Origin: Candidatus Latescibacterota bacterium
GTDB lineage: Bacteria; Latescibacterota; UBA2968; UBA8231
Reading direction: 5' to 3'
Length of the DNA: 64,000 bases
Assembly (NCBI GenBank): GCA_965204725.1
Contig: OZ242005.1
Coordinates: 1,408,001-1,472,000 of the forward strand
Under the pieces are notes generated by a model. That model was not told the DNA's origin. It saw nothing but the letters and a program-made list of their open reading frames with translations, and searched no databases. How positions within the stretch are numbered: the stretch's first letter is position 1; every line of letters begins with the position of its first letter. Positions 23,273 through 64,000 of this stretch are shown piece after piece. The position numbers were made by a program, and so were the translations under genes.

Positions 23273-23499
23273 TTTCTTCCTTTCAGAATCAGTTGATCCA
23301 ATGGGTTGGGTTTAATCGATAAGGATAAATGATCAGCAGGACCTCTCAATAAGTACCTGATACGCAAGCCTACCGGACTGTCCCGGCCCCCATTGGTCAA
23401 AAGGCACTGTATTCATTAGCTTTTCCTCTGCGATTAAACGGATTGACGAGTAAAAAATGTATGCTAAATGAAGCTAAAAAACAACGTCAAGAGCCTCTT

Positions 23500-34354: not shown

Positions 34355-34432
34355 GACGTGCGTCTCAACATCCTGCTCATCTCGGTACGCTAATTGTCGA
34401 AGCGCGCACTCGTCGCGGTGCGGAGCTTGTCG

Positions 34433-43844: not shown

Positions 43845-44564
43845 TCAAGGAAGGGTAAAAGCCGCCGAGTCCACGCACTGACAGGCGTGGCGGTAGCGTT
43901 CTGGCGTATCGGTTGAAAGGATCTGCCCGCGCAGGGGATGCCCGCGCAGGGGGCAGCCGGCCGCGAGCAAGTCGGCGAAGACCTCGCTGAAGTCGCAGGG
44001 GGTGTCGGGCGGGATGTAGTCGAGGATTTCGGGTTGGAGGGCGTAGATTCCGGCGTTGACCCAATAGTCGTCGAATACTTGGTCGGCTTGGGGTTTTTCG
44101 ACGAAGCGGTTGATGCGGTGGTGCGCGTCGAGGCCGACGATGCCCCGCGTGGTCGGGTCGTCCATCCGCACCAGCCCGACGGTGGCGATCGCGCCCTCGC
44201 GCTGGTGGGTTTGCCACAAGTCGCTTAGGTCGAAGTTGGTCAGATTGTCTCCATAGTACATTAAAAAAGGCCCGTCGAAGAAGTCGGCCACGTGCCGGGC
44301 GGCACCCGCAGTGCCGAGCAAGTCGTTCTCCCGCGAATAGGCAATCGACACCCCCCAGGCCCGGCCATCGCCGAAATAGTCGGCAATGACTTGGGGCAAG
44401 TGATGGAGGTTGATGACGAGGTCGTCGAACCCGTGCCGAGTCAACAGGCGCACGACGTATTCGAGCAGGGGTTTGCCGGCAAAGGGGACCATGGGCTTGG
44501 GCATCGCGTCGGTGAGTGGACGCAGCCGCGTGCCGCGCCCCGCGGCTAGGATCATCGCCTTCAC
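43845..44564 (-). CDS. Sugar-phosphate nucleotidyltransferase
   Basis: AMILAAGRGTRLRPLT...PKP, GTAGA, YGDN, EKP. Confidence 0.9.
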   Translation of the reverse strand: MKAMILAAGRGTRLRPLTDAMPKPMVPFAGKPLLEYVVRLLTRHGFDDLVINLHHLPQVIADYFGDGRAWGVSIAYSRENDLLGTAGAARHVADFFDGPFLMYYGDNLTNFDLSDLWQTHQREGAIATVGLVRMDDPTTRGIVGLDAHHRINRFVEKPQADQVFDDYWVNAGIYALQPEILDYIPPDTPCDFSEVFADLLAAGCPLRGHPLRGQILSTDTPERYRHACQCVDSAAFTLP

Positions 44565-45842: not shown

Positions 45843-47811
45843 TCACCGGCCCGGCGAAAGTTCCGCTTCCCAGACGGTGCGGTTTTCTTTGGAAATCCAC
45901 TGGCCGACCCGGATGCGGCTGATGGCGTAGGCGGGGAGATGGGCGGTCGCGATACACTGGTCGCCGCGCCGCCAACCGCGCCGCATGTTCTCCAAGTCGA
46001 AATAGAAGCCGAGGTTGTCAAAACCGTACTCCTTGCGGTAGGCTGGCAGGTCGGCCGGGTCGGTCGGGGTGACGTGCAAAATGAACTTCGCCTGCGTATC
46101 CGCCGGGGCGCACGGCTTTTTGAGATAAGTCAGCTTGCGTCCGTTGCGGTACACGTCCCAGACGGAGTGGACCACCCGCTCGCCAGCCTGTTCGATGAGT
46201 TGCTCTATGTAGCGTTCTTTCCGAGCGCGATGCTTGTCCGCATCGAACGGTTCGGCCGCCGTGGCGCGGAAGACAACGCCGTCGGCCAGTTCGGCCACGG
46301 TTTCCAGCCCGGGCAGGACGCGGGAAACTCCGGAACCAAACGATATGCGCGTCAGTGCTGTCTGTGGTCCACCGAATCCTGTTCTGCGCTAACCGAGAAA
46401 GAGGGGATTTTCCCGAACTTCTTGGGGCGGCGGTCCGGTCGTAAAACCAAGCAATCTGGTACTTTCCTGGGGCGGCGGTCCGGTCATAAAACCAAGCAAG
46501 TTTTATGTTGGTGTAAATCGTGCCAGCGATGGGGTTGTCTCGGATGTAGGACAAGGTCTCGGAATGTTGCCAATAGGCGGCGGCGGCGTTGAACGTCCGG
46601 TCTGTGTGCCCGGCTATCGCTTGGTCGGTAAGAATTCGGTTTCTGTCCGTCGAGAAGCCTAAGTGGGCGAGGGTGGCCAGCAAGACGAGGGATGCCAGCC
46701 CGTAGCGGATGGGCACCATCCAGCCCGCAGACTCCATGGACAGGAACCGGTCTAGCAGAAACACCGCTGCCAGTAGCAGCGGCACGTATATCGGCATCAA
46801 ATAGCGGCTGTCGATGTCATGATCAACCGTGAAGGGCACGACCGCGACCATGAATACGATGTAGATTACGGCGAACACCCCGAATGGGAGAGCCGGCGTG
46901 GCCTCTGGGTCCGGCCGGTGACCGCGAAGGACGGCCGCCGCGCTGGCGAGGATGACCGTGGCGACCGCTGGCCATAGCAGATAAGCAAACCCATCCGGCG
47001 AGTACAAGGGGACGACCCACTTATGGAACACCTCAACGGTTTGGCGCAGCCCATCGGAGAGGGACTGCCCCGAAGGATGCTCTCTGTAGCCTGTTGCTCG
47101 AGTCAGGTTCCCGGTGACCGCCCAATTGTGCGCCAATACCGCCAGCAAGGGCAGGGACGAGACCGCGCCAAAGACAACGGTATGCCTTAGCCGGGCGAGG
47201 GGCAGCAGCAGCAAGACGCCGGTGCCAATCAGGACTACGCCCACATAGCGGGTTATCGCGGCCAGCGCGGTGAAAACCGCCGCCCACCACAGGGGCGCGG
47301 CCGTCTTGCGGTGGAGGAAGGCCGCCAACTGCGTCAAGGCGAGGAGCGTCAACAGGAAGAAGAGGGCCTCGGTCTGGAGGACGGCCCCCCAATGGTTCAA
47401 GGGCACGGAGGTCGCGATGATCGCGGTAGCCGCCAGCGCGAGCAGCCGCGACCGGAGATTTGAGCTCAGCCAGACCCCCGCGACGAGGATGGTCAGCCCA
47501 AAGATAATGGCGTTGACCCACCGACCTGCCTCCAGCGGGTCGATGCCAACCCAACCGAAGGCTGCCAGCAATAGGGGGAACAAGGGCGGGTATAATGTCA
47601 GCGGTTCGCCCGTGAAATCCCGCCAGCCCTCTCCGGCGAGGAAGTTCAGGGCCGTAGAAAGGTAAACGGTGGCGTCCGGGGAGACCACGGCGCCGTAGGT
47701 GGCGGTGCGGACGAGGATGTGCGCGGTGCCCAGCCCGGCGAGGACGACGATGAGCAGGGTGGTGTGGTCGCGCCCGAACCGGGCGATCTTCTCGAATGCG
47801 GAGTGCTTCAT
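45843..47811 (-). pseudogene. Array copy 1 (distal), frameshifted GT-C-like membrane protein
   Basis: Frame break near 46320-46335 separates ORFs 46018-47811 and 45843-46298; internal duplication of AWFYDRTAAP. Confidence 0.75.
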
Positions 47812-47835
47812 TTCAAATCATTTAGGATGGCTATA
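47812..47835 (-). repeat. 24-bp junction element (also at 49807-49830, 51843-51866, 53862-53885, 56201-56224, partial 58744-58753, 61085-61108, 63458-63481)
   Basis: TATAGCVATCCTAMATGANTYGMA immediately after each TGA stop. Confidence 0.9.
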
Positions 47836-49806
47836 TCACCGGCTCGGCGTCAACTCTGCTTCCCAGACGGTGCGGTTCTCTGCGGGAATCCACTGGCCGA
47901 TATAGATGCGGTCGATGGCGTAGGCGGGGAGTGGGACGATTGCGATACATTGGTCGTCGATTTGCTCGCCGCGCCAGTTGAAAAGGAAGTCGAGATTTTC
48001 AGAAATGTACTGTTGGCGGTAGGCTGGCAGGTTCGCCGGGTCGGCGGGGACGACGTGTAGAACGAACTTCGCCCGCACGTCCGCGGGGGCGCACGGCTCT
48101 TTGAGGTAGGTCAGCTTGCGTCCGGTGCGGTACACGCTCCAGCCGGCGTGGACCACTCGCTCGCTGGCCTGTTGGATGAGTTGGTCTATGTAGCGTTGTT
48201 TGCGGGCGCGATGCCTTTTCGCGTCGAAGGGTTCGTACGCCGTGCGGCGGAACACGACGCCGTCGGCCAGTTCGGCCACGGTTTCCACCCCGGGCAAGAG
48301 ACGGAGGTCCGTGTCGTCGTAGCTGAGAAAAGATCGATGATAGAATTTATCAAACCAAACGATATGCGCCCCGGCCTCGATTGTGGGCCACCCCATCTCG
48401 CGCGGAATGCTTAGGTACTTGCCCGGGGCGACGGTCCCATCCGCAAACCAAGCAAGGGATTTCTTGTTGCTGTAAACCCGGCCCTCAACGCGGTTATCCC
48501 GGAGGGAGCGGATGTAATTCAGGGTCTCGGACTGTTGCCAATAGGGGGTGTTGTACATCCAGTCTTGTCCGTGCCCGACGTCCCATACTTTGGCGGTACG
48601 ACGGAGGTTTTCTCCCGTCGAGAAGCCGACGTGGGCGAGGGTGGCGAGCAAGACGAGGGCTGCGAGACTGTAGCGGATGGCACCGATCCAACTCGCCGCG
48701 ATGGATAGGAACCGATCGAGCAAGAACACGGCCGTCAACAGCAGCGGCACGTGTATCGGCAGCAAGTAGCGGGTGTTGATTATCTGCTCAACCGTCAAGG
48801 GCACGACGACGACCATGAATGCGAGGTAGGTCAAGACGAACCCCCCGAATGGGATCGCCGGCCTCAAGCGGAAATAGGCCGGCGCGGCTTTTTGGTCCGG
48901 CCGGAGGGCGCGAAGGATGACCACGGCACTGGCGAGGACGGTCGCCGCGACCGCCAGCCACAGCAGATAGGTAAGTCCAGCCGGCGCGTTGGGGAGGACG
49001 GTCCACTCGTGGAACACATCGACGATCTGGCGTAGCCCGTCGGCTAGGGACTGCCCCGAAGGGCTTACTGGCCCTGTTCTGTCCCCTGTTGCCCGGGCCA
49101 GATTCCCGGTGACCGCCCAGTTGCGCGCCAATACCGCCAGCAAGGGCAGGGACGAGATCACGCCGAAGATGAGGGTCTGCCTTAGCCGGGCAAAGGGCAG
49201 CAGGATGAGGACGCCAGCGGCGATTAGGGCCACGCCCGGATAGCGGGTCAGCGCGGCCAGCGCGGTGAAAACTGCCGCCCACCACAGGGACGCGGTCGTC
49301 CGCCGGTTGAGGAAGGCCGCCAACTGGATCAAGGCGAGGAGCGCAAGCAGGACGAGAAGGGGATCGGTCCTGAGGCGGGGTGCCCAATAGTTCAAGGGCA
49401 GGGAGGCCGCGATGATTGCGGTGGCGGCCAGCACCAGCCACTGCGACCGGAGATTTGAGCGCAGCCAGCACCCGGCGGCGAGGATGATCAGCCCGAAGGC
49501 CGCGGCGTAGATCAATCGACCCGCGACCAGCGGCTCGACGCCGACCCAACCACCGGCCGCCAGCAACAGGGGGAGCAAGGGCGGCCATCCTGTCAGCGGT
49601 TGGCCCGTGAAATCCCGCAAGCCTTCGCCGGCGAGGAAGTTCAGGGCCGTAGAAAGGAAAGCGGTGGCGTCCATGTCGATCTCCGCGCCGTAAGGGGCGG
49701 TGCGGACGAGGATGTGGGCGGTGCCTAGCCCGGCGATAAGGACGATGAGCAGGGTGGTGCGGTCGCGCCCGAACCGGGCGATCTTCTCGAATGCGGAGTG
49801 CTTCAT
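47836..49806 (-). CDS. Array copy 2: GT-C (ArnT/PMT-like) membrane protein, one C-terminal domain
   Basis: D..FLSTALN, WPPL, TDP, ALTRYPG, RYLLP pattern of GT-C folds; many hydrophobic helices. Confidence 0.75.
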   Translation of the reverse strand: MKHSAFEKIARFGRDRTTLLIVLIAGLGTAHILVRTAPYGAEIDMDATAFLSTALNFLAGEGLRDFTGQPLTGWPPLLPLLLAAGGWVGVEPLVAGRLIYAAAFGLIILAAGCWLRSNLRSQWLVLAATAIIAASLPLNYWAPRLRTDPLLVLLALLALIQLAAFLNRRTTASLWWAAVFTALAALTRYPGVALIAAGVLILLPFARLRQTLIFGVISSLPLLAVLARNWAVTGNLARATGDRTGPVSPSGQSLADGLRQIVDVFHEWTVLPNAPAGLTYLLWLAVAATVLASAVVILRALRPDQKAAPAYFRLRPAIPFGGFVLTYLAFMVVVVPLTVEQIINTRYLLPIHVPLLLTAVFLLDRFLSIAASWIGAIRYSLAALVLLATLAHVGFSTGENLRRTAKVWDVGHGQDWMYNTPYWQQSETLNYIRSLRDNRVEGRVYSNKKSLAWFADGTVAPGKYLSIPREMGWPTIEAGAHIVWFDKFYHRSFLSYDDTDLRLLPGVETVAELADGVVFRRTAYEPFDAKRHRARKQRYIDQLIQQASERVVHAGWSVYRTGRKLTYLKEPCAPADVRAKFVLHVVPADPANLPAYRQQYISENLDFLFNWRGEQIDDQCIAIVPLPAYAIDRIYIGQWIPAENRTVWEAELTPSR

Positions 49807-49830
49807 TTCAAATCATTTAGGATTGCTATA

Positions 49831-51852
49831 TCACCGGCTCGGCGTCAACTCCGCTTCCCAGAGGGTGCGGTTGTCTCTGGAAATCCACTGGCCGATATGG
49901 ATGCGGTCGATGGGGTAGGCGGGGAGATGGGCGATAGCGATGCACTGGTCGCCGAGCCGGAAGCCGAGGGATTTATAAAGCAAGTTATAGTGGAAATAGA
50001 AGTCGAGATTCTCCGAACCGTACTGTTGGCGGTGGGCTGGCAGGTCGGCCGGGTCGGCGGGGACGACGTGCAAAACGAACTTGGCCTGCACGTCGGCGGG
50101 GGCGCACGGCTTTTTGCGGTAGATCAGCGTGCGTTCGGTGCGGTACACGGTCCAGCCAGCGCGGACCACTCGCTCGCTGGCCTGTTGGATGAGTTGATCT
50201 ATGTAGCGTTGTTTTCGAGCGCGATGCCTGTCTTCGTCGAAGGGTTCGTACGCGGTGCGGCGGAGTACGAGGCCGTCGGGCAGTTCGGCCACGACTTCCA
50301 CGCCGGGCAAGAGCCGGAAGTCCAAGTCGTCGTAGCGGAAAAATCCTTGATGATAGGGCTCATTAAGGCAAACGATATGCGCCCCGGCCTCGATCTCGGC
50401 CTGCCCCATCTTGTGCGTGATTATTCGGTACGTTCTCAACTTTCTTAGGGCGGCAGTCCGATCCCAAAACCAAGCAAGCTCTCCCCTGTTGCTGTAAATC
50501 GTGCCCTCAATAGGGTTATCCCGGATGTACTTCAGGGTCTCGGAATGTTGCCAGCGGGCGTACCTGTATTGGGTGACATAAGCTTGGGCGGTACGGCGGA
50601 GGTTTGCTCGCGCCGAGCAGCCGACGTGGACGAGGGCGGCCAGCACGACGAGGGACGCCAGCCCGTAGCGGACAGCCGCCATCCAGCCCGCCGCCTCAAT
50701 GCACAGGAACCGGTCCAGCAAAAACACCGCCACCAACAGCAACGGTACATACACCGGCACCAGGTAACGTAAGGGGAACTCACCAACGGGGGACACGAGC
50801 GGCACGATGGTGACGATGAATACGAGGTAGGCTACGGCGAACCCCCCGAATGGGAGCACCGGCCCCAACCCGAAGGAGGGCGACTTGCCGCCCCTGCCGA
50901 AGCCGCGGCCAGCCCAAACGACGACTGCCCCCGCTGCCAGAACGACTAGCCCGGCCACCATCCACAGGAGATAACCCAACCCGTCCGGCGCGTTCGGGGG
51001 AATCGCCCAATCCCGGAATCCATCCGCCATTTGGCTCAGCCAATCGGACAGGGACAGCCCCGACTCTGTTCTCGGCCCGGTCAGGGTCCCGGAGACCGCC
51101 CAGTTGCGCGTCAGCACCCCTGCGAGGGGGATGGATGAGACGGCCCCAAATACGATGGCGTACTTTAACCGGGCGGCCAGCGGCGGGGCGCGATGCACCA
51201 GCAGCACGAGGACGCCGACGCCGACCAGCACCACGCCCGCATAGCGGGTTATTGCGGCTAGCGCGGTGAAAACTGCCGCCCACCACAGGGGCGCGTCCGT
51301 CCGCCGATTGAGGAAGGCCGCCAACTGCATCAAGGCGAGGAGCGTAAACAGGACGAAGAGCGTCTCGGTCAAGAAGCGTGCCGCGAGATCGCTCAGGGGC
51401 CGGGAGGCCGCGATGATCGCGGTGGCGGCCAGCACCAGCCACCGCAACCGGAGATTTGAGCGCAGCCAGCATCCCGCGGCAAGGATGGTCAGCCCGAAGG
51501 CGGTGGCGTTGATCCACCGACCCGCTTCCAGCGGCTCGATGCCGACCCAGCCGAAGGCGACCAGCGACAGGGGGAACAAGGGCGGCCAAGTCGCCATCGG
51601 ACGGTCCGCGAAATCCCGCCAGCCCTCTCCGGCGAGGAAGTTCAGGGCCGTAGAAAGGTAAGCTACGGAGTCCGGGCTGACCGCGGCACCGTAGGTGGCG
51701 GTGCGGACGAGGATGTTCGCGGCGCCCAGCCCAGCGAGGAGGACGATGAGCAGGATGCAGGGGTCGCGCCAGAAGCGGAATTCCCCTCCCCTCGTCTGTG
51801 TGTCATGCTGAGCGTAGCGCAGTCGAAGCATCTCTATAGGCTTTCGAGTCAT
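49831..51852 (-). CDS. Array copy 3: GT-C-like membrane protein, atypical N-terminus
   Basis: Same motifs; start ATG lies within the junction element and reads through a REP-like sequence. Confidence 0.7.
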   Translation of the reverse strand: MTRKPIEMLRLRYAQHDTQTRGGEFRFWRDPCILLIVLLAGLGAANILVRTATYGAAVSPDSVAYLSTALNFLAGEGWRDFADRPMATWPPLFPLSLVAFGWVGIEPLEAGRWINATAFGLTILAAGCWLRSNLRLRWLVLAATAIIAASRPLSDLAARFLTETLFVLFTLLALMQLAAFLNRRTDAPLWWAAVFTALAAITRYAGVVLVGVGVLVLLVHRAPPLAARLKYAIVFGAVSSIPLAGVLTRNWAVSGTLTGPRTESGLSLSDWLSQMADGFRDWAIPPNAPDGLGYLLWMVAGLVVLAAGAVVVWAGRGFGRGGKSPSFGLGPVLPFGGFAVAYLVFIVTIVPLVSPVGEFPLRYLVPVYVPLLLVAVFLLDRFLCIEAAGWMAAVRYGLASLVVLAALVHVGCSARANLRRTAQAYVTQYRYARWQHSETLKYIRDNPIEGTIYSNRGELAWFWDRTAALRKLRTYRIITHKMGQAEIEAGAHIVCLNEPYHQGFFRYDDLDFRLLPGVEVVAELPDGLVLRRTAYEPFDEDRHRARKQRYIDQLIQQASERVVRAGWTVYRTERTLIYRKKPCAPADVQAKFVLHVVPADPADLPAHRQQYGSENLDFYFHYNLLYKSLGFRLGDQCIAIAHLPAYPIDRIHIGQWISRDNRTLWEAELTPSR
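51802..51833. repeat. REP-like element
   Basis: GTCATGCTGAGCGTAGCGCAGTCGAAGCATCT resembles the widespread GTCA-type REP family. Confidence 0.5.
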
Positions 51853-51866
51853 GTAGGATTGCTATA

Positions 51867-53861
51867 TCACCGGCTTGGCGTCAACTCCGCTTTCCAGAGG
51901 GTGCGGTTGTCTCTGGAAATCCACTGGCCGATATGGATGCGGTCGATGGCGTAGGCGGGGAGATGGGCGATAGCGATGCACTGGTCGCCGAGCCGGAAGC
52001 CGAGGGATTTCCAAAGCGAGTTATAGTGGAAATAGAAGTCGAGATTCTCCGAACCGTACTGTTGGCGGTCGGCTGGCAGGTCGGCGGGGTCGGCTGGGAC
52101 GACGTGCAAAACGAACTTGGCCTGCGGGTCGGCGGGGGCGCACGGCTCTTTGCGGTAGATCAGCTTATGTCCGGTGCGGTACACGGTCCAGCCGGCGCGG
52201 CGTACTTGCTCGCTGGCCTGTTGGATGAGTTGATCTATGTAGCGTTGTTTTCGAGTGCGATGCCTGTCTTCGTCGAAGGGTTCGTACGCTGTGCGGCGGA
52301 GTATGAGGCCATCGGGCAGTTCGGCCACGACTTCCACGCCGGGCAAGAGATGGAAGTCCAAATCGTCGTAGCCGAAAAATCCTTGATGATAGGGCTCATT
52401 AAGGCAAACGATATGCGCCCCGGCCTCGATCTCGGCCCGCCCCATCTTGTGCGTGATTATTCGGTACGTTCTCAACTTTCTTAGGGCGGCAGTCCGATCC
52501 CAAAACCAAGCAATCGCGCCCCTGTTGCTGTAAATCGTGCCCTCGATAGGGTTGTCCCGGATATACTTCAGGGTCTCGGAATGTTGGAAGCGGGCGGCAT
52601 TGTTCAACCCGTATTGGTATCCGGTGACATAAGCTTGGGCGGTACGGCGGAGGTTTGCTCGCGCTGAGAAGCATAAGTGAGCGAGGGCGGCCAGCACGAC
52701 GAGGGACGCCAGCCCGTAGCGGACAGCCCCCATCCAGCCCGCCGCCTCGATGGACAGGAGCCGGTCCAGCAAAAACACCCCGGCCAACAGCAACGGCACG
52801 TATATCGGCAGCAGGAAACGGGGGAGGAGGAGGAGCACATTGAGGATCACGAGCGGCACGATGGTGACCATGAATACGAGGTAGGCTACGGCGAACACCC
52901 CGAAGGGGAGCACCGGCCCCAACCCAAACGATGGCGACTTGCCGCCCATGCCGAAGCCGCGGCCAGCCCAAACGACGACTGCCCCCGCTGCCAAAATGAC
53001 TAGCCCAGCCACCATCCACAGGAGATAACCCAACCCGTCCGGCGCGTTGGGGGGAATCGCCCATCCCCGGAATGTATCCGCCACTCGGCTCAGCGCATCG
53101 AACAGGGACGCCCCCGAGTCTGTTCTCGGCCCGGTCAGGAGCCCGGAGACCGCCCAGTTGTGTGTCAGCACCCCTGCGAGGGGGATGGATGAGACGGCCC
53201 CAAATACGAGGGTGTGCTTTAACCGGGTGGTCAGCGGCGGGGCGCGACGCACCAGCAGCACGAGGACGCCGGTGCCGATCAGCACCACGCCCGCATAGCG
53301 GGTTATTGTGGCTAGCGCGGTGAAAACCGCTGCCCACCACAGGGGCGCGTCCGTCCGCCGATTGAGGAAGGCCGCCAACTGCATCAAGGCGAGGAGCGTA
53401 AACAGGACGAAGAGGGGCTCGGTCTTGATGGTTGACGCGAAATCGCTCAGGGGCCGGGAGGCCGCGATGATCGCGGTGGCGGTCAGTGTCAGCCACCGCG
53501 ACCGGAGATTTGAGCGCAGCCAGCATCCCGCGGCAAGGATGGTCAGCCCGAAGGCGGTGGCGTTGATCCACCGACCCGCTTCCAGCGGCTCGATGCCGAC
53601 CCAACCGCCAGCCACCAGCAACAGGGGGAACAAGGGCGGCCAATGCACCGTCGGACGGTCCGCGAAATCCCGCCAGCCCTCTCCGGCGAGGAAGTTCAGG
53701 GCCGTAGAAAGGAAAAATACGGAATCTCCGATGACCGCGGCACCGTAGGTGGCGGTGCGGACGAGGATGTTCGCGGTGCTCAGCCCGGCGATAAGGACGA
53801 TGAGCAGGATGCAGGGGTCGCGCCCGAACCGGGCGATCTTCTCGAATGCGGAGTGCTTCAT
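51867..53861 (-). CDS. Array copy 4: GT-C-like membrane protein, one C-terminal domain
   Basis: Paralog motifs; C-terminal third nearly identical to copy 3. Confidence 0.75.
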   Translation of the reverse strand: MKHSAFEKIARFGRDPCILLIVLIAGLSTANILVRTATYGAAVIGDSVFFLSTALNFLAGEGWRDFADRPTVHWPPLFPLLLVAGGWVGIEPLEAGRWINATAFGLTILAAGCWLRSNLRSRWLTLTATAIIAASRPLSDFASTIKTEPLFVLFTLLALMQLAAFLNRRTDAPLWWAAVFTALATITRYAGVVLIGTGVLVLLVRRAPPLTTRLKHTLVFGAVSSIPLAGVLTHNWAVSGLLTGPRTDSGASLFDALSRVADTFRGWAIPPNAPDGLGYLLWMVAGLVILAAGAVVVWAGRGFGMGGKSPSFGLGPVLPFGVFAVAYLVFMVTIVPLVILNVLLLLPRFLLPIYVPLLLAGVFLLDRLLSIEAAGWMGAVRYGLASLVVLAALAHLCFSARANLRRTAQAYVTGYQYGLNNAARFQHSETLKYIRDNPIEGTIYSNRGAIAWFWDRTAALRKLRTYRIITHKMGRAEIEAGAHIVCLNEPYHQGFFGYDDLDFHLLPGVEVVAELPDGLILRRTAYEPFDEDRHRTRKQRYIDQLIQQASEQVRRAGWTVYRTGHKLIYRKEPCAPADPQAKFVLHVVPADPADLPADRQQYGSENLDFYFHYNSLWKSLGFRLGDQCIAIAHLPAYAIDRIHIGQWISRDNRTLWKAELTPSR

Positions 53862-53885
53862 TTCAAATCATGTAGGATTGCTATA

Positions 53886-56210: not shown

Positions 56211-56224
56211 GTAGGATCGCTATA

Positions 56225-58582
56225 TCACCGGCTCGGCGTCAACACTGCTTCCCAGAGGGTGCGGTCCTCTGCGGGAATCCACTGGCCGATATAGATGCGG
56301 TTGATGGTATAGGCGGGGAGTGGGATGATTGCCATACACTGGTCGTCGATTCGCTCGCCGTACCGGTCGAAATAGAAGTCGCGATTTTCCGAGCCGTACG
56401 GTTGGCGGTCGGCTGGCAGGTCGGCCGGGTCGGCCGGGACGACGTGGAAAACGAACTTCGCCTGCACGTCGGCGGGGGCACACGGCTCTTTGTGGTAAAT
56501 CAGCGTGCGTCCCGTGCGGTACACGTTCCAGCCGGCGCGGCCGACCGGATCGTCGGCCTGTTGGATGAGTTGCTCTACGTAGCGTTGCTGCTGGGCGCGA
56601 TGCCTTTTTACTTCGGCGGGGTTGGCCGGCAACTCCGCTTTCCAGAGGGTGCGTTCCTCTGCGGGAATCCACTGGCCGACATGAATGCGGCGGATGGCAT
56701 AGGTGGGGAGCGGGAGGATCGCCACACACTGGTTGCCGAGCCAAGAGCCGCGCCAGTCGAAATGGAAGTCGCGATTCTCCGAGCCGTACGGTTGGCGACG
56801 GACTGGCAGGTCGGTCGGGTCGATGGGGACGATGTGCAAGACGAATGTCGCCTGTATATCCGCAGGGGCACAGGGCTCTTTGAAGTAGATCAGCTTGCGT
56901 CCATTGCGGTACACGCCCCAGCCGGCGCGGCCGACCTGATCGTCGGCCTGTTGGATGAGTTGCTTTACATAGCGTTCTCGCTGGGCGCGATGCCTTTTCG
57001 GATCGGAGGGTGCGGCGGTCGTGCGGCGGAGTACGACGCCGTCGGCCAGTTCGGCCACGACTTCCACGCCGGGCAGGACGCGGAGGTCCGTGTCGTCGTA
57101 GCCGTGCAGGTCGCGTCTATGGTCATAGGACCAAACGATATGCGCCCCGGCCTCGATCTCGGTCCACCGCATCTTGCTGCGCGGGATATTGCGGTGCTTT
57201 CCTGGGACGGCGGTCCAATCCCAAAACCAAGTAAGAAATTTGTTGTGGTTGGTGTAAATCCTGCCCTCGATCTGATTGTCCCGGAGGTAGTTCAGGGTCT
57301 CGAACTGTTCCCAATAGGCAGCGTTGTAATTGTAGGCAGGGTAGTATCCGGCTACATACGCTTGGGGGGCAAGACGGAGGCTTTTTTGCGCTGAGAATCC
57401 GACGTGGACAAGGGTGGCGAGCACGACGAGGGCCGCCAACCCGTAGCGGACGGCCATCCTCCGGCCCGAATCCTTGCTGGACAGGAACCGGTCGAGCAGC
57501 AACGCGGCCGTCAACAGCAACGGCACGTATATCGGCAGCAGGTAGCGGCTGTCGATTTCCTGCTCAACCGTCAAGGGCACGATGAGGACTAGGAATGCGA
57601 TGTAGGTCACGGTGAACGCCCCGAATGGGAGTGCCGGCTCCAAGCGGAAATAGGTCGGCGCGGCTTTTTGGTCCGGCCGGAGGGCGCGCAGGATGACCGC
57701 GGTGCTGGCGAGGACGACCGCGGCGACCGCCAGCCATATCAGATACGCAAACCCATCCGGCGCATTCGGGGGGACGGGCCACCCGTGGAACACATTGACG
57801 ATCTGGCGTAACCCGTCGGCTAGGGACTGCCCCGAAGGGCTTAGGACCCCTGTTCTGTCCCCTGTTGCCCGGGTCAGGTCCCCGGTGATCGCCCAATTAT
57901 GCGCCAATACCGCCAGCAAGGGCACGGACGAGATCGCGCCAAAGACGAGGGTCTGCCTTAGCCGGGCGGCGGGCAGCAGGATAAGGACCCCAGTGCCAAT
58001 CAGGGCCACGCCCGGATAGCGAGTTATCGCGGCCAGCGCGGTGAAAACCGCCGCCCACCACAGGGGCGGGCCATCTTTTCGGTTGAGGAAGGACGCCAAC
58101 TGGATCAAGGCGAGGAGCGCGAACAGGAAGAACAGGGGCTCGGTTACGCATAGGGCCGCCTCATGGCTCAAGGGCAAGGAAGCCGCGATGATTGCGGTGG
58201 TGGCTAGCACCAGCCACTGTGACCGGAGATTGGAGCGCAGCCAGCAGCCGGCGGCGAGGATGGTCAGCCCGAAGGCCGCGGCGTTGACCCACCGCCCTAC
58301 CTCCAGCAGATCGATGCCGACCCAACCGCCGGCCACCAGCAATAGGGGGAACAAGGGCGGCCATAACGTCAGCGGTTGGCCGGTGAGATCCCGCCAGCCC
58401 TCTCCGGCGAGGAAGTTCAGGGCCGTAGAAAGCGAAGCGATGGAGTCCATGTGGACCGAGGGGCCGTAAGTGGCGGTGCGGACGAGGATGTTCGCGGTGC
58501 CCAGCCCGGCGATAAGGACGATGAGCAGGGTGGTGCGGTCGCGCCAGAACCGGGCGATCCACTCGATGGCGGAGTACTTCAC
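56225..58582 (-). CDS. Array copy 6: GT-C-like membrane protein, two C-terminal domains
   Basis: Paralog motifs; GTG start (VKYSAIEWIAR) aligns with MKHSAFEKIAR of other copies. Confidence 0.75.
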   Translation of the reverse strand: MKYSAIEWIARFWRDRTTLLIVLIAGLGTANILVRTATYGPSVHMDSIASLSTALNFLAGEGWRDLTGQPLTLWPPLFPLLLVAGGWVGIDLLEVGRWVNAAAFGLTILAAGCWLRSNLRSQWLVLATTAIIAASLPLSHEAALCVTEPLFFLFALLALIQLASFLNRKDGPPLWWAAVFTALAAITRYPGVALIGTGVLILLPAARLRQTLVFGAISSVPLLAVLAHNWAITGDLTRATGDRTGVLSPSGQSLADGLRQIVNVFHGWPVPPNAPDGFAYLIWLAVAAVVLASTAVILRALRPDQKAAPTYFRLEPALPFGAFTVTYIAFLVLIVPLTVEQEIDSRYLLPIYVPLLLTAALLLDRFLSSKDSGRRMAVRYGLAALVVLATLVHVGFSAQKSLRLAPQAYVAGYYPAYNYNAAYWEQFETLNYLRDNQIEGRIYTNHNKFLTWFWDWTAVPGKHRNIPRSKMRWTEIEAGAHIVWSYDHRRDLHGYDDTDLRVLPGVEVVAELADGVVLRRTTAAPSDPKRHRAQRERYVKQLIQQADDQVGRAGWGVYRNGRKLIYFKEPCAPADIQATFVLHIVPIDPTDLPVRRQPYGSENRDFHFDWRGSWLGNQCVAILPLPTYAIRRIHVGQWIPAEERTLWKAELPANPAEVKRHRAQQQRYVEQLIQQADDPVGRAGWNVYRTGRTLIYHKEPCAPADVQAKFVFHVVPADPADLPADRQPYGSENRDFYFDRYGERIDDQCMAIIPLPAYTINRIYIGQWIPAEDRTLWEAVLTPSR

Positions 58583-58753
58583 CGTGGACAGGGTAATTCC
58601 CCTCCCTTCCGTAAATTTAGTAAGAAAAACAACCATTTACGTCATTATCCTTTTTCGCGTTCCAAGGCGATCCTACTCGTCGTCTAACAGGTTGGGGCCA
58701 TCAGAATTTATTACGGGCGTATCCCAGTGTCATTCCCGCGAAAGATGGCTATA

Positions 58754-61084
58754 TCACCGGCTCGGCGTCAACACTGCTTCCCAGAGGGTACGGTCCTCTG
58801 CGGCAATCCACTGGCCGATATAGATGCGGTTGATGGCATAGTCGGGGAGCGGGGCGATAGCGATACACTGGTCGTCGATTCGCTCGCCCCATCGGTCGAA
58901 ATAGAAGCCGCGATTATCCGAATCGTACTGTTGGCGGTCGGCTGGCAGGTCGGCCGGGTCGGCCGGGACGACGTGTAGAACGAACTTCGCCTGTATGTCG
59001 GCGGGGGCACACGACGCTTTGCGGTAAATCAGCGTGCGTCCCGTGCGGTACACGTTCCAACCGGCGCGGACGACCGGATCGTCGGCCTGTTGGATGAGTT
59101 GCTCTACGTAGCGTTGCTGCTGGGCGCGATGCCTTTTCACTTCGGCGGGGTTGGCCGGTAACTCCGCTTCCCAGAGGGTGCGTTCCTCTGCGGGAATCCA
59201 CTGGCCGACATGGATGCGGCGGATGGCATAGGTGGGGAGCGGGAGGATCGCCACACACTGGTTGCCGAGCCAAGAGCCGCGCCAGTCAAAATGGAAGTCG
59301 AGATTCTCCGAACCGTACGGTTGGCGACGGACTGGCAGGTCGGTCGGGTCGGTGGGGACGACGTGCAAGACGAATGTCGCTTGTATGTCGGCGGGGGCAC
59401 AGGGCTCTTTGAAGTAGATCAGCTTGCGTCCATTGCGGTACACGCCCCAGCCGGCGCGGCTGACCTGATCGTCGGCCTGTTGGATGAGTTGCTTTACATA
59501 GCGTTCTTGCTGGGCGCGATGCCTTTTCGCATCGGAGGGTGCGGCGGTCGTGCGGCGGAGTACGACGCCGTCGGCCAGTTCGGCCACGACTTCCACGCCG
59601 GGCAGGACGCGGAGGTCCGTGTCGTCGTAGCCGTGCAGGTCGCGTCTATGGTCATAGGACCAAACGATATGCGCCCCGGCCTCGATCTCGGTCCACCGCA
59701 TCTTGCTGCGCGGGATATTGCGGTGCTTTCCTGGGGCGGCGGTCCAATCCCAAAACCAAGTAAGATATGTGTTGTGGTTGGTGTAAATCCTGCCCTCGAT
59801 CTGATTGTCCCGAAGGTAGTTCAGGGTCTCAAACTGTCCCCAATAAGAGGTGTTGTAAGCGGCGGCATGGTGGTATCCGGCTACATAAGCTCGGGCGGTA
59901 AGACGGAGGTTTTTTTGCGCTGAGAATCCGATGTGGACAAGGGTGGCGAGCACGACGAGGGCCGCCAACCCGTAGCGGACGGCCAGCCTCCAGCCCGCCG
60001 CCTTGCTGGACAGGAACCGATCGAGCAGCAACGCGGCCGTCAACAGCACCGGCACGTATATCGGCAGCAGGTAGCGGCTGTGGATTTGCTCAGTAACCGT
60101 GGAGGGCACGACGACTAGTAGAAATGCGAGGTAGATCCCGGTGAATGCCCCGAATAGGAGAGCCGACTTCCCGTCCGTGCCTAGGCCGCGACCCGCCCGA
60201 ACGACGACCGCCCCGGCTGCCCAAACGACCAGCCCGGCCACCGGCCACAGCAGATAACCAAACCCGTCTGGCGTACTCGGGGGGACGATCCACGCACGGA
60301 ACACCTCGACGATCTGGTGCAGCCCATCGGAGAAGGACCGCCCCCAATGGTCTGTTCGGTCCCCTGTTGCCAAGTCTAGGTTCCCGGTGGTCGCCCAGTT
60401 GTACGCCAACACCGCCAGCAAGGGCACAGACGAGATCGCGCCAAAGCCGAGCGTGTGCTTCAGCCGAGCGAGGGGCGCTAGGAACAGGACGCCGGTGCCT
60501 ATTAGCACCACGCCCGGATAGCGGGTCAGCGCGGCCAAAGCGGTGAAAACCGCCGCCCACCACAGGGGTGCGTCCGTCTCGCGGTTGAGGAAGGAAGCCA
60601 ACTGCATCAAGGCGAGGAGCGTGAACAGGAAGAACAGGGGATCGGTCTTGAGTTGGGCCGCCTCATGGCTCAAGGGCAAGGAAGCCGCGATGATTGCGGT
60701 GGCGGCCAGCCCCAGCCACCGCGACCGGAGATTGGAGCGCAGCCAGCACCCGGCGGCGAGGATGGTCAGCCCAAAGGCCGCGGCTTGGATCCACCGCCCT
60801 GCCTCCAGCAGCTCGATGCCGACCCAACCGCCGGCCGCCAGCAATAAGGGGAACAGGGGCGGCCAGCTTGTCGGCGGTCCGCCCGTGAAATCCCGCCAGC
60901 CCTCTCCGGCGAGGAAATTCAGGGCTGTAGAAAGGAAAACGACGGAGTTTTGGTGGACCGAGGGGCCGTAAGTGGCGGTGCGGACGAGGATGTGGGCGGT
61001 GCCCAGCCCGGCGATAAGGGCGATGAGCAGGGTGCAGGGGTCGCGCCCGAACCGGGCGATCTTCTCAAATGCGGAGTGCTTCAT
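58754..61084 (-). CDS. Array copy 7: GT-C-like membrane protein, two C-terminal domains
   Basis: Paralog motifs; putative catalytic Asp replaced by Asn (HQNSV). Confidence 0.75.
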   Translation of the reverse strand: MKHSAFEKIARFGRDPCTLLIALIAGLGTAHILVRTATYGPSVHQNSVVFLSTALNFLAGEGWRDFTGGPPTSWPPLFPLLLAAGGWVGIELLEAGRWIQAAAFGLTILAAGCWLRSNLRSRWLGLAATAIIAASLPLSHEAAQLKTDPLFFLFTLLALMQLASFLNRETDAPLWWAAVFTALAALTRYPGVVLIGTGVLFLAPLARLKHTLGFGAISSVPLLAVLAYNWATTGNLDLATGDRTDHWGRSFSDGLHQIVEVFRAWIVPPSTPDGFGYLLWPVAGLVVWAAGAVVVRAGRGLGTDGKSALLFGAFTGIYLAFLLVVVPSTVTEQIHSRYLLPIYVPVLLTAALLLDRFLSSKAAGWRLAVRYGLAALVVLATLVHIGFSAQKNLRLTARAYVAGYHHAAAYNTSYWGQFETLNYLRDNQIEGRIYTNHNTYLTWFWDWTAAPGKHRNIPRSKMRWTEIEAGAHIVWSYDHRRDLHGYDDTDLRVLPGVEVVAELADGVVLRRTTAAPSDAKRHRAQQERYVKQLIQQADDQVSRAGWGVYRNGRKLIYFKEPCAPADIQATFVLHVVPTDPTDLPVRRQPYGSENLDFHFDWRGSWLGNQCVAILPLPTYAIRRIHVGQWIPAEERTLWEAELPANPAEVKRHRAQQQRYVEQLIQQADDPVVRAGWNVYRTGRTLIYRKASCAPADIQAKFVLHVVPADPADLPADRQQYDSDNRGFYFDRWGERIDDQCIAIAPLPDYAINRIYIGQWIAAEDRTLWEAVLTPSR

Positions 61085-61108
61085 TTCAACTCATGTAGGA
61101 TCGCTATA

Positions 61109-63457
61109 TCACCGGCTCGGCGTCAACTCTGCTTCCCAGAGGGTGCGGTTGTCTGCGGAAATCCACTGGCCGATATAGATGCGGTCGATGGCATAGGCGG
61201 GGAGTGGGATGATTGCCATACACTGGTCGTCGATTCGCTCGCCGTACCGGTCGAAATAGAAGTCGCGATTTTCCGAGCCGTACGGCTGGCGGTCGGCTGG
61301 CAGGTCGGTCGGGTCGGCCGGGACGACGTGGAAAACGAACTTCGCCTGCGTGTCGGCGGGGGCACACGGCTCTTTGTGGTAAATCAGCTTGCGTCCGGTG
61401 CGGTACACGTTCCAACCGGCGCGGACCACCGGATCGTCGGCCTGTTGGATGAGTTGCTCTACGTAGCGTTGCTGCTGGGCGCGATGCCTTTTCACTTCGG
61501 CGGGGTTGGCCGGCAACTCCGCTTTCCATACGGTGCGTTCCTCTGCGGGAATCCACTGGCCGACATGGATGCGGCGGATGGCATAGGTGGGGAGCGGGAG
61601 GATCACCACACACTGGTCGCCGAGCCAAGAGCCGCGCCAGTCAAAATGGAAGTCGAGATTCTCCGAGCCGTACGGTTGGCGACGGACTGGCAGGTCGGTC
61701 GGGTCGATGGGGACGATGTGCAAGATGGACGTCGCCTGTATGTCGGCGGGGGCACAGGGATCTTTGAAGTAGATCAGCTTGCGTCCTTTGCGGTACACGC
61801 CCCAGCCGGCGCGGCCGACCTGATCGTCGGCCTGTTGGATGAGTTGCTTTACATAGCGTTCTCGCTGGGCGCGATGCCTTTTCGCATCGGAGGGTGCGGC
61901 GGTCGTGCGGCGTAACACAACGCCGTCGGCCAGTTCGGCCACGACTTCCACGCCGGGCAGGACGCGGAGGTCCGTGTTGTCGTAGCCGTGCAGGTCGCGT
62001 CTATGGTCATAGGACCAAACGATATGCGATCCGGCCTCGATCTCGGTCCACCACCGCGTGCGCGGGATATGGCGGTGCTTTCCTGGGGTGGCGGTCCAAT
62101 CCCAAAACCAAGTAAGATGTTTGCTGTAGTTGGTGTAAATCCTGCCCTCGATCTGATTGTCCCGGAGGTAGTTCAGGGTCTCGAACTGTTCCCAATAGGA
62201 GGTGTTGTAATTGTAGGCATGGTAGTATCCGGCTACATAAGCTCGGGCGGTAAGACGGAGGTTTCTGTCCGCTGAGAATCCGACGTGGACAAGGGTGGCG
62301 AGCACGACGAGGGCCGCCAACCCGTAGCGGACGGCCAGCCTCCAGCCCGCTGTCTTGCTGGACAGGAACCGGTCGAGCAGCAACGCGGCCGTCAATAGCA
62401 ACGGCACGTATATCGGCAGCAGGTAGCGGCCGTCGATGGTCTGACCAACCGTGAAGGGCACGACCGCGACCATGAATACGGGGTAGATCCCGGTGAACAC
62501 CCCGAATGGGAGAGCCGGCCCCAACCCAAACGCCAGCGACTTCCCGTCCGTGCCTACGCCGCGACCAGCCCGAACGACGACCGCCCCTGCTGCCCAAACG
62601 ACCAGTCCGGCCACCGGCCACAGCAGATAACCAAACCCGTCTGGCGTACTCGGGGGGACGATCCACGCGCGGAACACCTCGACGATCTGGTGCAGCCCAT
62701 CGGAGAAGGACTGCCCCGAACGATTTGTTCGGTCCCCTGTTGCCAAGTCTAGGTTCCTGGTGGCCGCCCAATTTCGCGCCAATACCGCGAGCAAGGGCAC
62801 AGACGAGATCGCGCCAAAGACGAGCGTGTGCTTCAGCCGAGCGAGGGACACTAGGAGCAGGACGCCGGTGCAGATCAAGGCTACGCCCGGATAGCGGGTT
62901 ATCGCGGCCAGCGCGGTGCAAACCGCCGCCCACCACAGGGACGCATTCGTCCGCCGGTTGAGGAAGTCCGCCAACTGCATCAAGGCGAGGAGCGCGAACA
63001 GGACGAACAGGGAATCGGTCCTGCATAGGGCCGCCTCATGGCTCAAGGGCAGGGAGGCTGAGATGGTCGCGGTGGTGGCTAGCACCAGCCACTGTGACCG
63101 GAGATTGGAGCGCAACCAGCACCCGGCGGCGAGGATGGTCAGCCCGAAGGCGGTGGCGTTGACCCACCGCCCTGCCTCCAGCAGATCGATGCCGACCCAA
63201 CCGCCGGCCGCCAGCAATAGGGGGAACAAGGGCGGCCATAAGGTCAGCGGTTCGCCCGTGAAATCCCGCCAACCCTCTCCGGCGAGGAAGTTTAGGGCCG
63301 TAGAAAGCGAAGCGATGGCGTCTATGTGGACCGAGGGGCCGTAAGTGGCGGTGCGGACGAGGATGTTCGCGGTACCCAGCCCGGCGATAAGGACGATGAG
63401 CAGGGTGGTGCGGTCGCGCCCGAACCGGGCGATCTTCTCGGTGGCGGAGTGTTTCAT
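61109..63457 (-). CDS. Array copy 8: GT-C-like membrane protein, two C-terminal domains
   Basis: Paralog motifs. Confidence 0.75.
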   Translation of the reverse strand: MKHSATEKIARFGRDRTTLLIVLIAGLGTANILVRTATYGPSVHIDAIASLSTALNFLAGEGWRDFTGEPLTLWPPLFPLLLAAGGWVGIDLLEAGRWVNATAFGLTILAAGCWLRSNLRSQWLVLATTATISASLPLSHEAALCRTDSLFVLFALLALMQLADFLNRRTNASLWWAAVCTALAAITRYPGVALICTGVLLLVSLARLKHTLVFGAISSVPLLAVLARNWAATRNLDLATGDRTNRSGQSFSDGLHQIVEVFRAWIVPPSTPDGFGYLLWPVAGLVVWAAGAVVVRAGRGVGTDGKSLAFGLGPALPFGVFTGIYPVFMVAVVPFTVGQTIDGRYLLPIYVPLLLTAALLLDRFLSSKTAGWRLAVRYGLAALVVLATLVHVGFSADRNLRLTARAYVAGYYHAYNYNTSYWEQFETLNYLRDNQIEGRIYTNYSKHLTWFWDWTATPGKHRHIPRTRWWTEIEAGSHIVWSYDHRRDLHGYDNTDLRVLPGVEVVAELADGVVLRRTTAAPSDAKRHRAQRERYVKQLIQQADDQVGRAGWGVYRKGRKLIYFKDPCAPADIQATSILHIVPIDPTDLPVRRQPYGSENLDFHFDWRGSWLGDQCVVILPLPTYAIRRIHVGQWIPAEERTVWKAELPANPAEVKRHRAQQQRYVEQLIQQADDPVVRAGWNVYRTGRKLIYHKEPCAPADTQAKFVFHVVPADPTDLPADRQPYGSENRDFYFDRYGERIDDQCMAIIPLPAYAIDRIYIGQWISADNRTLWEAELTPSR

Positions 63458-63481
63458 TTCAAATCATTTAGGATTGCTATA

Positions 63482-64000
63482 TCACCGGCTCGGCGTCAAC
63501 TCCGCTTCCCAGAGGGTGCGGTTCTCTGCGGAAATCCACTGGCCGATATGGATGCGGTCCATGGCGTAGTTGGGGAGACGGACGATCGCCACACATTGGT
63601 CGCCGAGATAGGAGCCGTACCAGTCGAAATGGAAGTCGAGATTTTCAGAACCGTACCGTTGGCGGTCGGCCCGCAGGTTCGCCAAGTCGGTGGGGACGAC
63701 GTGTAGAACGAACTTCGCCTGCACATCGGCAGGGGCACACGGCTCTTTGCGGTAAATCAGCTTGCGTCCCGTGCGGTACACGTTCCAGCCGGCGCGAACC
63801 ACTCGCTCGTCGGCCTGTTGGATGAGTTGCTGCACGTAGCGTTGCTTCCGGGCGCGATGCCTTTTTCCGTCGAAGGGTCCGTACGCTGTGCGGCGGAGTA
63901 CGACGCCATCGGCCAGTTCGGCCACGATTTCCATGCCGGGCAGGGCACAGAGGTCCGTGACGTCGTAGCCGTAAATATCTCGTCTATAAAACTCCCCGAA
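63482..64000 (-). CDS. Array copy 9 (3' part only; continues beyond window)
   Basis: C-terminal domain and WEAELTPSR* end. Confidence 0.75.
   Translation of the reverse strand, partial: FGEFYRRDIYGYDVTDLCALPGMEIVAELADGVVLRRTAYGPFDGKRHRARKQRYVQQLIQQADERVVRAGWNVYRTGRKLIYRKEPCAPADVQAKFVLHVVPTDLANLRADRQRYGSENLDFHFDWYGSYLGDQCVAIVRLPNYAMDRIHIGQWISAENRTLWEAELTPSR

Follow-up and report, generated by a model that had tools for sequence, protein, structure and literature searches.

This analysis concerns a tandem array of paralogous genes in the genome (G000) of a Candidatus Latescibacterota bacterium. The DNA analyzed, here called the window, is the 64,000-nucleotide (nt) stretch C1:1408001-1472000, where C1 (OZ242005.1) is a 5.38-Mb contig without N; a second contig of the assembly measures 51.7 kb. 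Between window positions 45843 and 64000, the minus strand carries eight long open reading frames (ORFs) of 597-803 amino acids (aa) and a ninth that leaves the window at its end, with no other long ORF between them. The encoded proteins have the predicted fold of C-type glycosyltransferases (GT-C), enzymes that build or decorate the envelope glycans seen by hosts, phages and immune systems. Most known bacteria have a handful of GT-C enzymes.

Anatomy of the array

An earlier reading of the window from its letters alone (the original prediction) had described at least nine genes on one strand, with none between them, in an array running off the window. The ORF list bears out this layout, except that the first copy is split by a frameshift and the ninth is cut by the window end, and the count was an understatement. 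Searches with the window copies (tblastn and a hidden Markov model, HMM) reveal 23 co-directional minus-strand genes, 22 of them intact, which occupy 48.4 kb (C1:1453843-1502260). Genome-wide, there are ~52 paralogous loci in some 10 clusters, those outside the main array containing 7, 3, 1, 8, 3, 2, 2, 1, and 2 genes; the ~52 copies account for about 2% of the genome. Three of these loci are split by frameshifts and two are short at the C-terminus. Thus, the amplification that had been proposed is present in an extreme form.

The nine window genes, all on the minus strand, end in a C-terminal module (the last ~130 residues) that is present twice in four of them. Gene 1 (45843..47811), the last in transcription order, is disrupted: an ORF at 46018-47811 (597 aa) encodes the membrane core, and a second one in another frame, at 45843-46298, encodes the C-terminal module, the two overlapping ORFs covering HMM positions 1-533 and 507-652. 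Genes 2 (47836..49806; 656 aa, the modeled protein), 3 (49831..51852; 673 aa) and 4 (51867..53861; 664 aa) have one module each, gene 3 being a recent duplicate of gene 4 (85% aa identity; synonymous divergence, dS, 0.095). Two modules are present in gene 5 (53886..56210; 774 aa), in gene 6 (56225..58636; up to 803 aa), which has a 117-nt gap upstream, in gene 7 (58754..61084; 776 aa), in which the putative catalytic Asp is changed to Asn, and in gene 8 (61109..63457; 782 aa; recognized by ORF, alignment and HMM). Gene 9 (63482..64000) encodes 653 aa and crosses the window end, so that only its C-terminal 172 aa are in the window; 14 more paralogs lie beyond it, up to C1:1502260.

Except for the 117-nt gap, the spacings between the window genes are 14-25 nt. 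By protein alignment, identity to the first copy is 57-61%, and pairs of copies reach as much as 87%; the copies differ by 13-40% in protein sequence. As had been noted, the 3' end is nearly constant: the ending ..RTLWEAELTPSR plus stop codon, and the spacer that lies 3' of the stop, scarcely vary across copies. The motif pattern that led to the original assignment, an Asp in the first loop followed by WPP(L), T(E/D)P, TRY, and RYLLP, is likewise present, apart from the Asp-to-Asn change in gene 7.

Predicted structure and conserved residues

An AlphaFold2 model of gene 2, based on an alignment of 43 homologs, has a predicted local distance difference test score (pLDDT) of 91.1 and a predicted template modeling score (pTM) of 0.91. 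When this model is compared with the PDB by Foldseek, 40 of 40 matches at E <= 1e-3 are GT-C enzymes. The top match is ArnT (5f15/5ezm, E 6e-7 to 8e-7, TM 0.54-0.57 on target), and the others include ALG, AglB/PglB/STT3, Aft/Emb, Pmt, and DPY19 proteins, with Pmt chains ranking 16th or lower. In the model, the polytopic membrane core therefore has the architecture of a GT-C enzyme, and an acidic residue, Asp46, lies in the predicted first extracytoplasmic loop, as is typical of this class; its placement comes from the order of helices in the model rather than from a topology program. Asp46 is nearly invariant in the 43-sequence alignment. Among 50 G000 paralogs, it is Asp in 43, Glu in one, and lost in six, four of which belong to the main array. 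R188, R346, D364, and a Cys pair are retained in nearly all paralogs.

Thus, the predicted fold agrees with the GT-C type originally proposed, but assignment to the Pfam families PMT_2 or PMT does not follow from the HMM searches. Four of the nine window copies match these families at E 0.002-0.009 (gene 4 matches PMT_2 at E 0.009), and the other five give no match. At E <= 0.01, 19 of the 43 aligned homologs match PMT_2 and 12 match PMT, and the neighbors in a protein atlas are PMT_2/PMT clusters. The best signal in NCBIfam is NF047440, the LA_3751/LA_3752 family (gene 5, E 4e-11 over residues 66-383), at 42 bits against a cut-off of 200. These sequence similarities point to distant relatives of PMT_2/PMT that are not members by the curated rule. 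The combination of a GT-C fold with a sequence profile that finds no relative among solved structures suggests a distant, unnamed branch of GT-C. It is also a large one, represented by 5625 cluster representatives at E <= 1e-3, some of which have up to ten matched stretches, corresponding to module repeats.

In the predicted protein layout, the ArnT/PMT-like polytopic core is followed by a periplasmic alpha/beta domain and then by one or two immunoglobulin (Ig)-like beta-sandwich modules, each with a conserved Cys pair. The periplasmic part, when modeled separately, has a pLDDT of 85.8. Its alpha/beta subdomain shows a weak likeness to the C-terminal globular domain of AglB/STT3 (Z 6.2-6.3). 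The C-terminal module, for example at window 47839-48225 (-), consists of a helix and an Ig/fibronectin type III (FN3)-like sandwich, spans ~105-130 aa, and includes the two conserved Cys residues. Fold searches with it return only generic Ig/FN3-like matches and weak matches to CBM56, CBM9 and starch-binding domains (Foldseek E >= 1e-3, VIA Z <= 7.9). The isolated module and the alpha/beta subdomain find nothing meaningful in Pfam at E <= 5, and scores for the module in the protein atlas are < 0.8. A search for longer proteins that contain the module yields, among the 120 proteins listed, almost only the same GT-C family. Two other G000 proteins carry the module without a recognizable GT-C core: one with three copies (C1:1989025-1991685; L011:8026-10686), which heads a plus-strand array at 1.99 Mb, and one with a single copy (C1:455515-456408). 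Neither Pfam nor NCBIfam has a name for the family, for its periplasmic module, or for the cross-phylum island described below.

Junctions between array genes

Nine of the 22 junctions in the array share the spacer TATAGC.ATCCTA.ATGA. At five others of the 22, the stop and start codons overlap (GTGA four times, ATGA once), and the rest of the junctions measure 13-118 nt. The conserved 24-25-nt spacer (window 47812-47835 and eight other junctions) contains a two-codon mini-ORF, ATG ATT TGA, that ends 2 bases before the next ATG and may be a device for re-initiation; no Shine-Dalgarno-like motif is evident in this spacer. A shared promoter had been suggested as something to look for, but promoter-like sites occur within the array at chance level, with no excess in the promoter scan. 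On the coding strand, no intergenic spacer contains a terminator-like site, and all six coding-strand matches lie inside genes. On the plus strand, most terminator-like matches occupy an equivalent position from one repeat to the next.

The original prediction called the array cassette-like, a description that these features do not support. Apart from the disrupted gene 1, every copy is a full gene with its own start codon. Within 48.7 kb of array, homopolymers of 8 or more bases (2.3 expected) and short tandem repeats are absent. The scanned ORFs (8 of 13 selected, up to ~10.9 kb upstream, and the window ORFs downstream) yielded no recombinase, reverse transcriptase or invertible element; the sole transposase found, of the IS110 type, is situated between two other arrays. 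Full genes with their own starts, packed closely or overlapping and free of repeat tracts or recombinases, are operon-like rather than switchable cassettes, and the stop/start overlaps imply coupled translation. Thus, the sequence is consistent with one long, partly translationally coupled operon within a glycan-modification locus, in which the genes would be co-transcribed. The scanned flanks and the array show none of the hallmarks of programmed diversification systems, such as shufflons, diversity-generating retroelements, silent cassettes or phase-variable repeats.

Relatives and turnover

A query with the membrane core at E <= 1e-20 finds matches in 8 of 168 genomes of the phylum and in 4 of 30 within the genus (G000 not counted). 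The closed genome of one congener, G146, contains 41 matches, including several arrays of up to six genes; another congener, G140, contains nine. From the loci of these relatives, 36 family ORFs were recovered (34 from G146, 2 from G140). In a FastTree phylogeny of 86 proteins, the 22 intact main-array genes fall within a clade of 28 (26 from G000, 2 from G146). Elsewhere in the tree, there are several 1:1 cross-species pairs, and the species label changes at least 14 times, or 11 times when only well-supported branches are counted. This is the pattern of a birth-and-death family.

Downstream of the main array, the flanking genes are in synteny with those of a G146 array of about six genes, the flank proteins being 88-94% identical. 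None of the genes in this syntenic array is a 1:1 ortholog of a G000 copy, and the two G146 members of the 28-protein clade come from another locus. An identical, fixed array in relatives, which would have spoken against a diversifying locus, was thus not seen; instead, the gene content has turned over completely. The upstream flank with the SGNH gene is found elsewhere in G146, beside a single copy of the family. Within G000, two dispersed GT-C copies (C1:1247277-1249595 and C1:2006966-2009425) are almost identical (tree branches 0.023 and 0.038) and look like a very recent dispersed duplication; the first of them is solitary and lies between two 444-aa periplasmic-binding-protein genes.

As to habitat, sequencing runs labeled 'sponge metagenome' contain 21-51% of the sampled words of the stretch, and one such run matches the window in pieces with 0-4 differences. 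Among the runs listed for the stretch, none is an RNA run.

Rates, selection and mosaicism

For the 22 intact array genes (231 pairs, Nei-Gojobori), the medians are 0.22 for nonsynonymous divergence (dN), 0.36 for dS, and 0.63 for dN/dS (range 0.46-0.92). At matched dS (0.25-0.65), the median dN/dS is 0.58 for pairs within the family (n=651), compared with 0.37 for other G000 paralogs (n=187, 123 genes), of which 21 reach dN/dS >= 0.5; paralog pairs are not independent, and therefore no p-value is quoted. Five flanking genes, compared with their G146 orthologs, have dN/dS of 0.14-0.41 at dS 0.16-0.27. Along the protein, windows with dN/dS near or above 1 include the N-terminal tail, both sides of the catalytic Asp, residues ~129-158 and ~324-353, and parts of the periplasmic domains. 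The lowest dS values, 0.17-0.20, occur in the last 30 codons.

A parsimony count over a 78-sequence tree gives an overall omega of 0.66, with 237 of 641 sites under significant purifying selection. Replacements are in excess at 43 sites (p < 0.05), of which only site 49 passes a Bonferroni correction. Sites 44, 45, 48 and 49, which surround Asp46, rank with the most variable positions of the protein, and other variable stretches are found at 67-73, 140-146, 300-311, 340-342 (just before R346) and in periplasmic regions. The nearest paralog differs between gene quarters in 20 of the 22 genes, which indicates that the copies recombine. The diversification that had been proposed is therefore apparent in the elevated dN/dS (~0.6), the hot spots beside the catalytic Asp, the mosaic genes and the turnover at the syntenic locus.

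Neighboring genes

The window genes downstream of the array are on the same strand and include NDP-sugar genes. Directly downstream lies an NAD-dependent sugar epimerase/dehydratase gene (44561..45676, -), whose ortholog, 94% identical in aa sequence, adjoins the G146 array. It is followed by a sugar-phosphate nucleotidyltransferase gene (43845..44867, -; NTP_transferase E 1.5e-39), which probably starts within its ORF, given the overlap of this ORF with that of the epimerase, by a GHMP-family sugar kinase gene, HddA-like but below the equivalog cut-off (42843..43832, -), and by a gene for a metallo-beta-lactamase-fold hydrolase (41998..42843, -), which is syntenic with the array flank in G146. 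Upstream of the array, an SGNH/AlgX-like gene and a YfhO-family gene are transcribed divergently; YfhO is another GT-C family.

The flanks of the other arrays in G000 are heterogeneous. Proteins with a type IX secretion system (T9SS) tail adjoin some of them, and a gene for a ~530-aa AAA_22/AAA_35 ATPase adjoins two, at C1:1179979-1181396 (L009:125-1720) and C1:4197334-4198816 (L018:4268-5872). This ATPase family has at least 14 copies in G000 (at least 12 of them at other places) and may be a mobile-element or defense gene. Two further window genes, for a TonB-dependent receptor with a carboxypeptidase-regulatory-like domain (34068-36638, +) and a large 2-oxoacid:ferredoxin oxidoreductase-type protein (23443-26922, +), are ordinary and unrelated to the array.

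Comparison with known systems

The best structural match, ArnT (GT83), transfers L-Ara4N (4-amino-4-deoxy-L-arabinose) from undecaprenyl phosphate to lipid A. It resembles the array proteins in its layout, a polytopic GT-C core with a periplasmic domain after it, and in the acidic residue of its first periplasmic loop. However, the array proteins have extra Ig-like modules, ArnT chains do not appear at E <= 1 in the profile search, and no arnBCADTEF-type context occurs among the scanned neighbors. Furthermore, ArnT is not known to be encoded by more than a single copy, as opposed to the 23 genes in a row here.

The mycobacterial arabinosyltransferases EmbC/EmbA/EmbB and AftA/B/D (GT53 and relatives) share the GT-C fold with the array proteins (Foldseek E 1e-5 to 2e-4), with no sequence match in the profile search. 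These enzymes have a membrane core followed by C-terminal periplasmic domains of the carbohydrate-binding type. According to the titles of their structure entries, they act on a growing polysaccharide and form homo- or heterodimers. They offer the closest analogy for how the array proteins might work. The embCAB trio is also the best-known tandem set of GT-C genes, and the name LA_3751/LA_3752 of the Leptospira family NF047440 suggests, from the locus tags, another pair of adjacent paralogs; thus, the statement in the original prediction that such genes usually occur singly was too strong. The differences are nevertheless considerable. There are 23 paralogs here as opposed to three in embCAB, the phylum and the envelope are different, and the C-terminal module of the array proteins is a small FN3/Ig-like sandwich with Z <= 7.9 to anything solved. 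NF047440, of which the array proteins are not members, itself has only a putative function. Finally, the protein O-mannosyltransferases (Pfam PMT/PMT_2, GT39) are the only Pfam families with any signal, although Pmt structures rank below ArnT, ALG, oligosaccharyltransferase and Aft. In the Gtr system of O-antigen glucosylation (gtrA-gtrB-gtrC), the flippase GtrA and the polyprenyl-phosphate glucosyltransferase GtrB are adjacent, an arrangement that was not found here among the scanned ORFs.

Outside of GT-C, the multi-copy glycosyltransferase arrays of trypanosomatids are large tandem families with a link to surface coats, and their diversification took place separately in related lineages (PMC5853035). 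Unlike the genes described here, they are eukaryotic, encode nucleotide-sugar-dependent enzymes (UDP-glycosyltransferases) rather than GT-C proteins, and are not operons (PMC5853035). In related literature, GT83 is given as one of the commonest glycosyltransferase families of sponge Chloroflexi (PMC6306507), multiple GT39 genes are reported from soil archaea (PMC10640624), few horizontal gene transfer events are reported in one sponge (PMC11410982), and classes of carbohydrate-active enzymes are only counted in PMC12993501. Within the literature text available to the search, which lay outside subscription journals and supplements, no description of such an array, module or cross-phylum island was found. 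Thus, the enzyme class and small tandem sets are known, whereas the scale, the unnamed subfamily with its module, the measured diversification and the turnover between congeners set this array apart.

A sister subtype in other phyla

A pattern scan of one genome per species, in which taxa were read from the titles of metagenome-assembled genome (MAG) records (titles that give no habitat), finds relatives of the array proteins at 38-47% identity in MAGs of many groups. The carriers include Caldilineaceae, Dehalococcoidia, Tepidiformaceae, Nitrospirales, Gammaproteobacteria, Pseudomonadales and Azotimanducaceae, as well as Bryobacterales, Vicinamibacterales, Binatia, Gemmatimonadota, Longimicrobiales and Entotheonella, a list that we take to resemble sponge microbiomes. 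In five of the carrier genomes, each from a different group, the copy number is only 2-5.

Across about ten phyla or classes, these relatives form a sister subtype, absent from G000, whose proteins are 77-91% identical among themselves. Its loci (L054-L091; for example L055:9998-13108, L060:9875-13018, L066:9935-11638 and L069:9869-12691) have neighboring genes in common, and the shared DNA blocks extend up to 4.7 kb at 80-93% nt identity. In most loci, the sister-subtype gene has a GC content of ~0.64-0.65, whatever that of the locus (0.57-0.71). These sequence comparisons suggest that an envelope-glycan island has recently been transferred between phyla.

Further genes of the island are for Wzy_C, radical-SAM/B12, GINT1_N-like and methyltransferase proteins. 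Other neighbors have the same C-terminal module as the GT-C proteins; these are AlgX/SGNH-like, arylsulfotransferase-like, glucose/sorbosone-dehydrogenase-cytochrome c and unknown-type proteins, and they are often found in rows beside the GT-C gene (L054:5696-20001; L083:540-16026; L066:6302-9741). The module is a candidate for a new carbohydrate-binding or targeting module. In the island of a Binatia MAG, one gene (L069:7287-8874) has ~70% nt identity to the AAA_22/AAA_35 ATPase gene of G000.

Proposed function

The account that we favor, as probable though far from assured, is that the array belongs to a birth-and-death family of glycosyltransferases, dependent on lipid carriers, through which envelope glycans become diversified. 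By analogy with characterized GT-C enzymes, each copy would transfer a sugar, carried by polyprenyl phosphate on the outer side of the inner membrane, to an acceptor in the envelope; this acceptor could be a polysaccharide or glycolipid chain, or else a protein at the surface. The beta-sandwich module(s) might hold a polymeric acceptor, as the C-terminal carbohydrate-binding domain does in EmbC and the other Emb/Aft enzymes. The family would evolve by tandem duplication, by unequal crossing-over or gene conversion, and by loss, while rapid change beside the catalytic Asp and in periplasmic loops would provide the copies with different specificities. Since amino acid change is concentrated at these places, the copies most likely differ in acceptor or donor specificity and would be expressed together. 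Co-expression could then produce a complex, fast-evolving surface glycan coat in this sponge-associated Latescibacterota bacterium. Such decoration might serve to evade hosts or phages, as the original prediction supposed. Copies that lack the Asp may be decaying, or they might serve as non-catalytic partners, given that, according to structure-entry titles, heterodimers are formed by GT-C enzymes such as Pmt1-Pmt2 and EmbA-EmbB.

Several observations weigh against this account. The window copies score below the gathering cut-offs of PMT_2 (PF13231; 16.7-18.8 against 26.1 bits) and PMT (PF02366; 17.1 against 22.7 bits), and the sequence-profile search of solved structures returns no relevant relative, its best match being a designed helical protein at E 0.049. 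Given neither a curated family nor a solved relative by sequence, the proposed activity draws on the predicted fold and the conservation of motifs. The Asp is missing from four of the 23 array copies and one gene is broken, which may mean that part of the set is in decay or has no catalytic activity. The variable sites are placed at the active-site face by their nearness to conserved motifs. A dN/dS of 0.6 could reflect relaxed constraint no less than positive selection; site 49 is the only one of 641 to pass the Bonferroni correction, and recombination violates the single-tree assumption of the parsimony count. Finally, no gene for a polyprenyl-phosphate sugar synthase or flippase was found beside the array. 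The single GtrA-family gene (C1:3000696-3001049) lies 1.5 Mb away, and the ORFs scanned beside it contain no Pfam glycosyltransferase family.

Alternative explanations

Two alternatives concern the nature of the array itself. If the assembler had concatenated strain variants of a single gene, the array would be an artifact, and short-read contigs from public runs do break inside it, with many spurious joints. However, the copies differ by 13-40% in protein sequence, far beyond strain variation, gene lengths and module numbers vary between them, the 5.38-Mb contig has no N, and a second, closed genome (G146) has arrays of the same kind. In Logan contigs from four runs of four studies, paralog-specific pieces are 99-100% identical to the window, and their depth is close to that of single-copy flank in three runs (X1, 86-123 against 89; X3, 19-31 against 22; X6, mostly 71-106 against 84, with one piece at 195). 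Because these contigs break inside the array (they are 200-600 nt long there, many joints are repeat-like, the gene order is not readable, and one run may be the source sample), their support for a real array is weak. Overall, an assembly artifact is unlikely, and we give it next to no weight. The many diverged copies with conserved ends, and the mosaic genes, would fit a programmed system of cassettes or antigenic variation, with a single copy expressed at a time from a site that receives silent copies by recombination or switching. Nevertheless, it too must be regarded as very improbable: each copy has its own start and a full frame, stop and start codons overlap at 5 of 22 junctions, and the homopolymers, short tandem repeats, recombinases, invertases and reverse transcriptases expected of such a system were not encountered in the array or among the scanned ORFs, with the only transposase located between two other arrays.

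Two others accept the array as a set of genes but differ on what the copies do. The paralogs could be PMT-type protein O-glycosyltransferases, each of which serves a subset of secreted or surface proteins rather than a polysaccharide or lipid. PMT_2 and PMT are indeed the only Pfam signals, and T9SS-tailed proteins adjoin some arrays, but the best structural match is a lipid A transferase, with Pmt chains 16th or lower; the neighborhood, with its sugar-nucleotide, YfhO and AlgX-like genes, is of a kind usual for the modification of polysaccharides; and in other genomes the C-terminal module is also found on AlgX/SGNH-like and sulfotransferase-like proteins. All of these points are still compatible with protein acceptors, and we consider this possibility unlikely rather than remote. 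The other is runaway neutral amplification, in which unequal crossing-over at the conserved ends multiplies copies that are mostly redundant and drift toward pseudogenes, with no selection for new specificities. The dN/dS of ~0.6 speaks for such a process, as do conserved junctions that favor unequal crossing-over (dS is lowest at the 3' end, 0.17-0.20 compared with a median of 0.36), the three frameshift-split and two C-terminally short loci among ~52, the loss of Asp46 in 6-7 of 50 copies, and the expansion of other gene families in G000. Yet open frames of 650-800 codons persist in all but one of the 23 array genes at dS ~0.36, 237 of 641 sites are under purifying selection with motif residues almost invariant, the variation is patterned and concentrated beside the conserved motifs instead of being uniform, and the sister species independently keeps ~37 copies. 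Neutral amplification is, therefore, also an unlikely explanation.

A more speculative extension of the proposed glycan-diversifying function, which we regard as doubtful but worth stating, is a 'glycan code' of symbiosis. Sponge symbionts of about ten phyla would exchange the GT-C island, and the Latescibacterota lineage, at the extreme end of this system, would have expanded its own branch of the family into dozens of co-expressed enzymes that differ in specificity. Their combinatorial products, perhaps made by heteromers that include the Asp-less copies, might mark the bacterium as a resident rather than food, or might outrun phages. The beta-sandwich would then be a new carbohydrate-binding module that directs GT-C, AlgX/SGNH-like and sulfotransferase-like enzymes to one polymer.

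Significance

The array is an unusually clear natural experiment in the diversification of glycosyltransferase specificity, in a set of genes that evolves several times faster than its neighbors. A description of the family, the module and the island would improve the annotation of hundreds of protein clusters (646 at E <= 1e-30). For the organism, the array offers a concrete way into the question of how sponge symbionts that have not been cultured form their surface.

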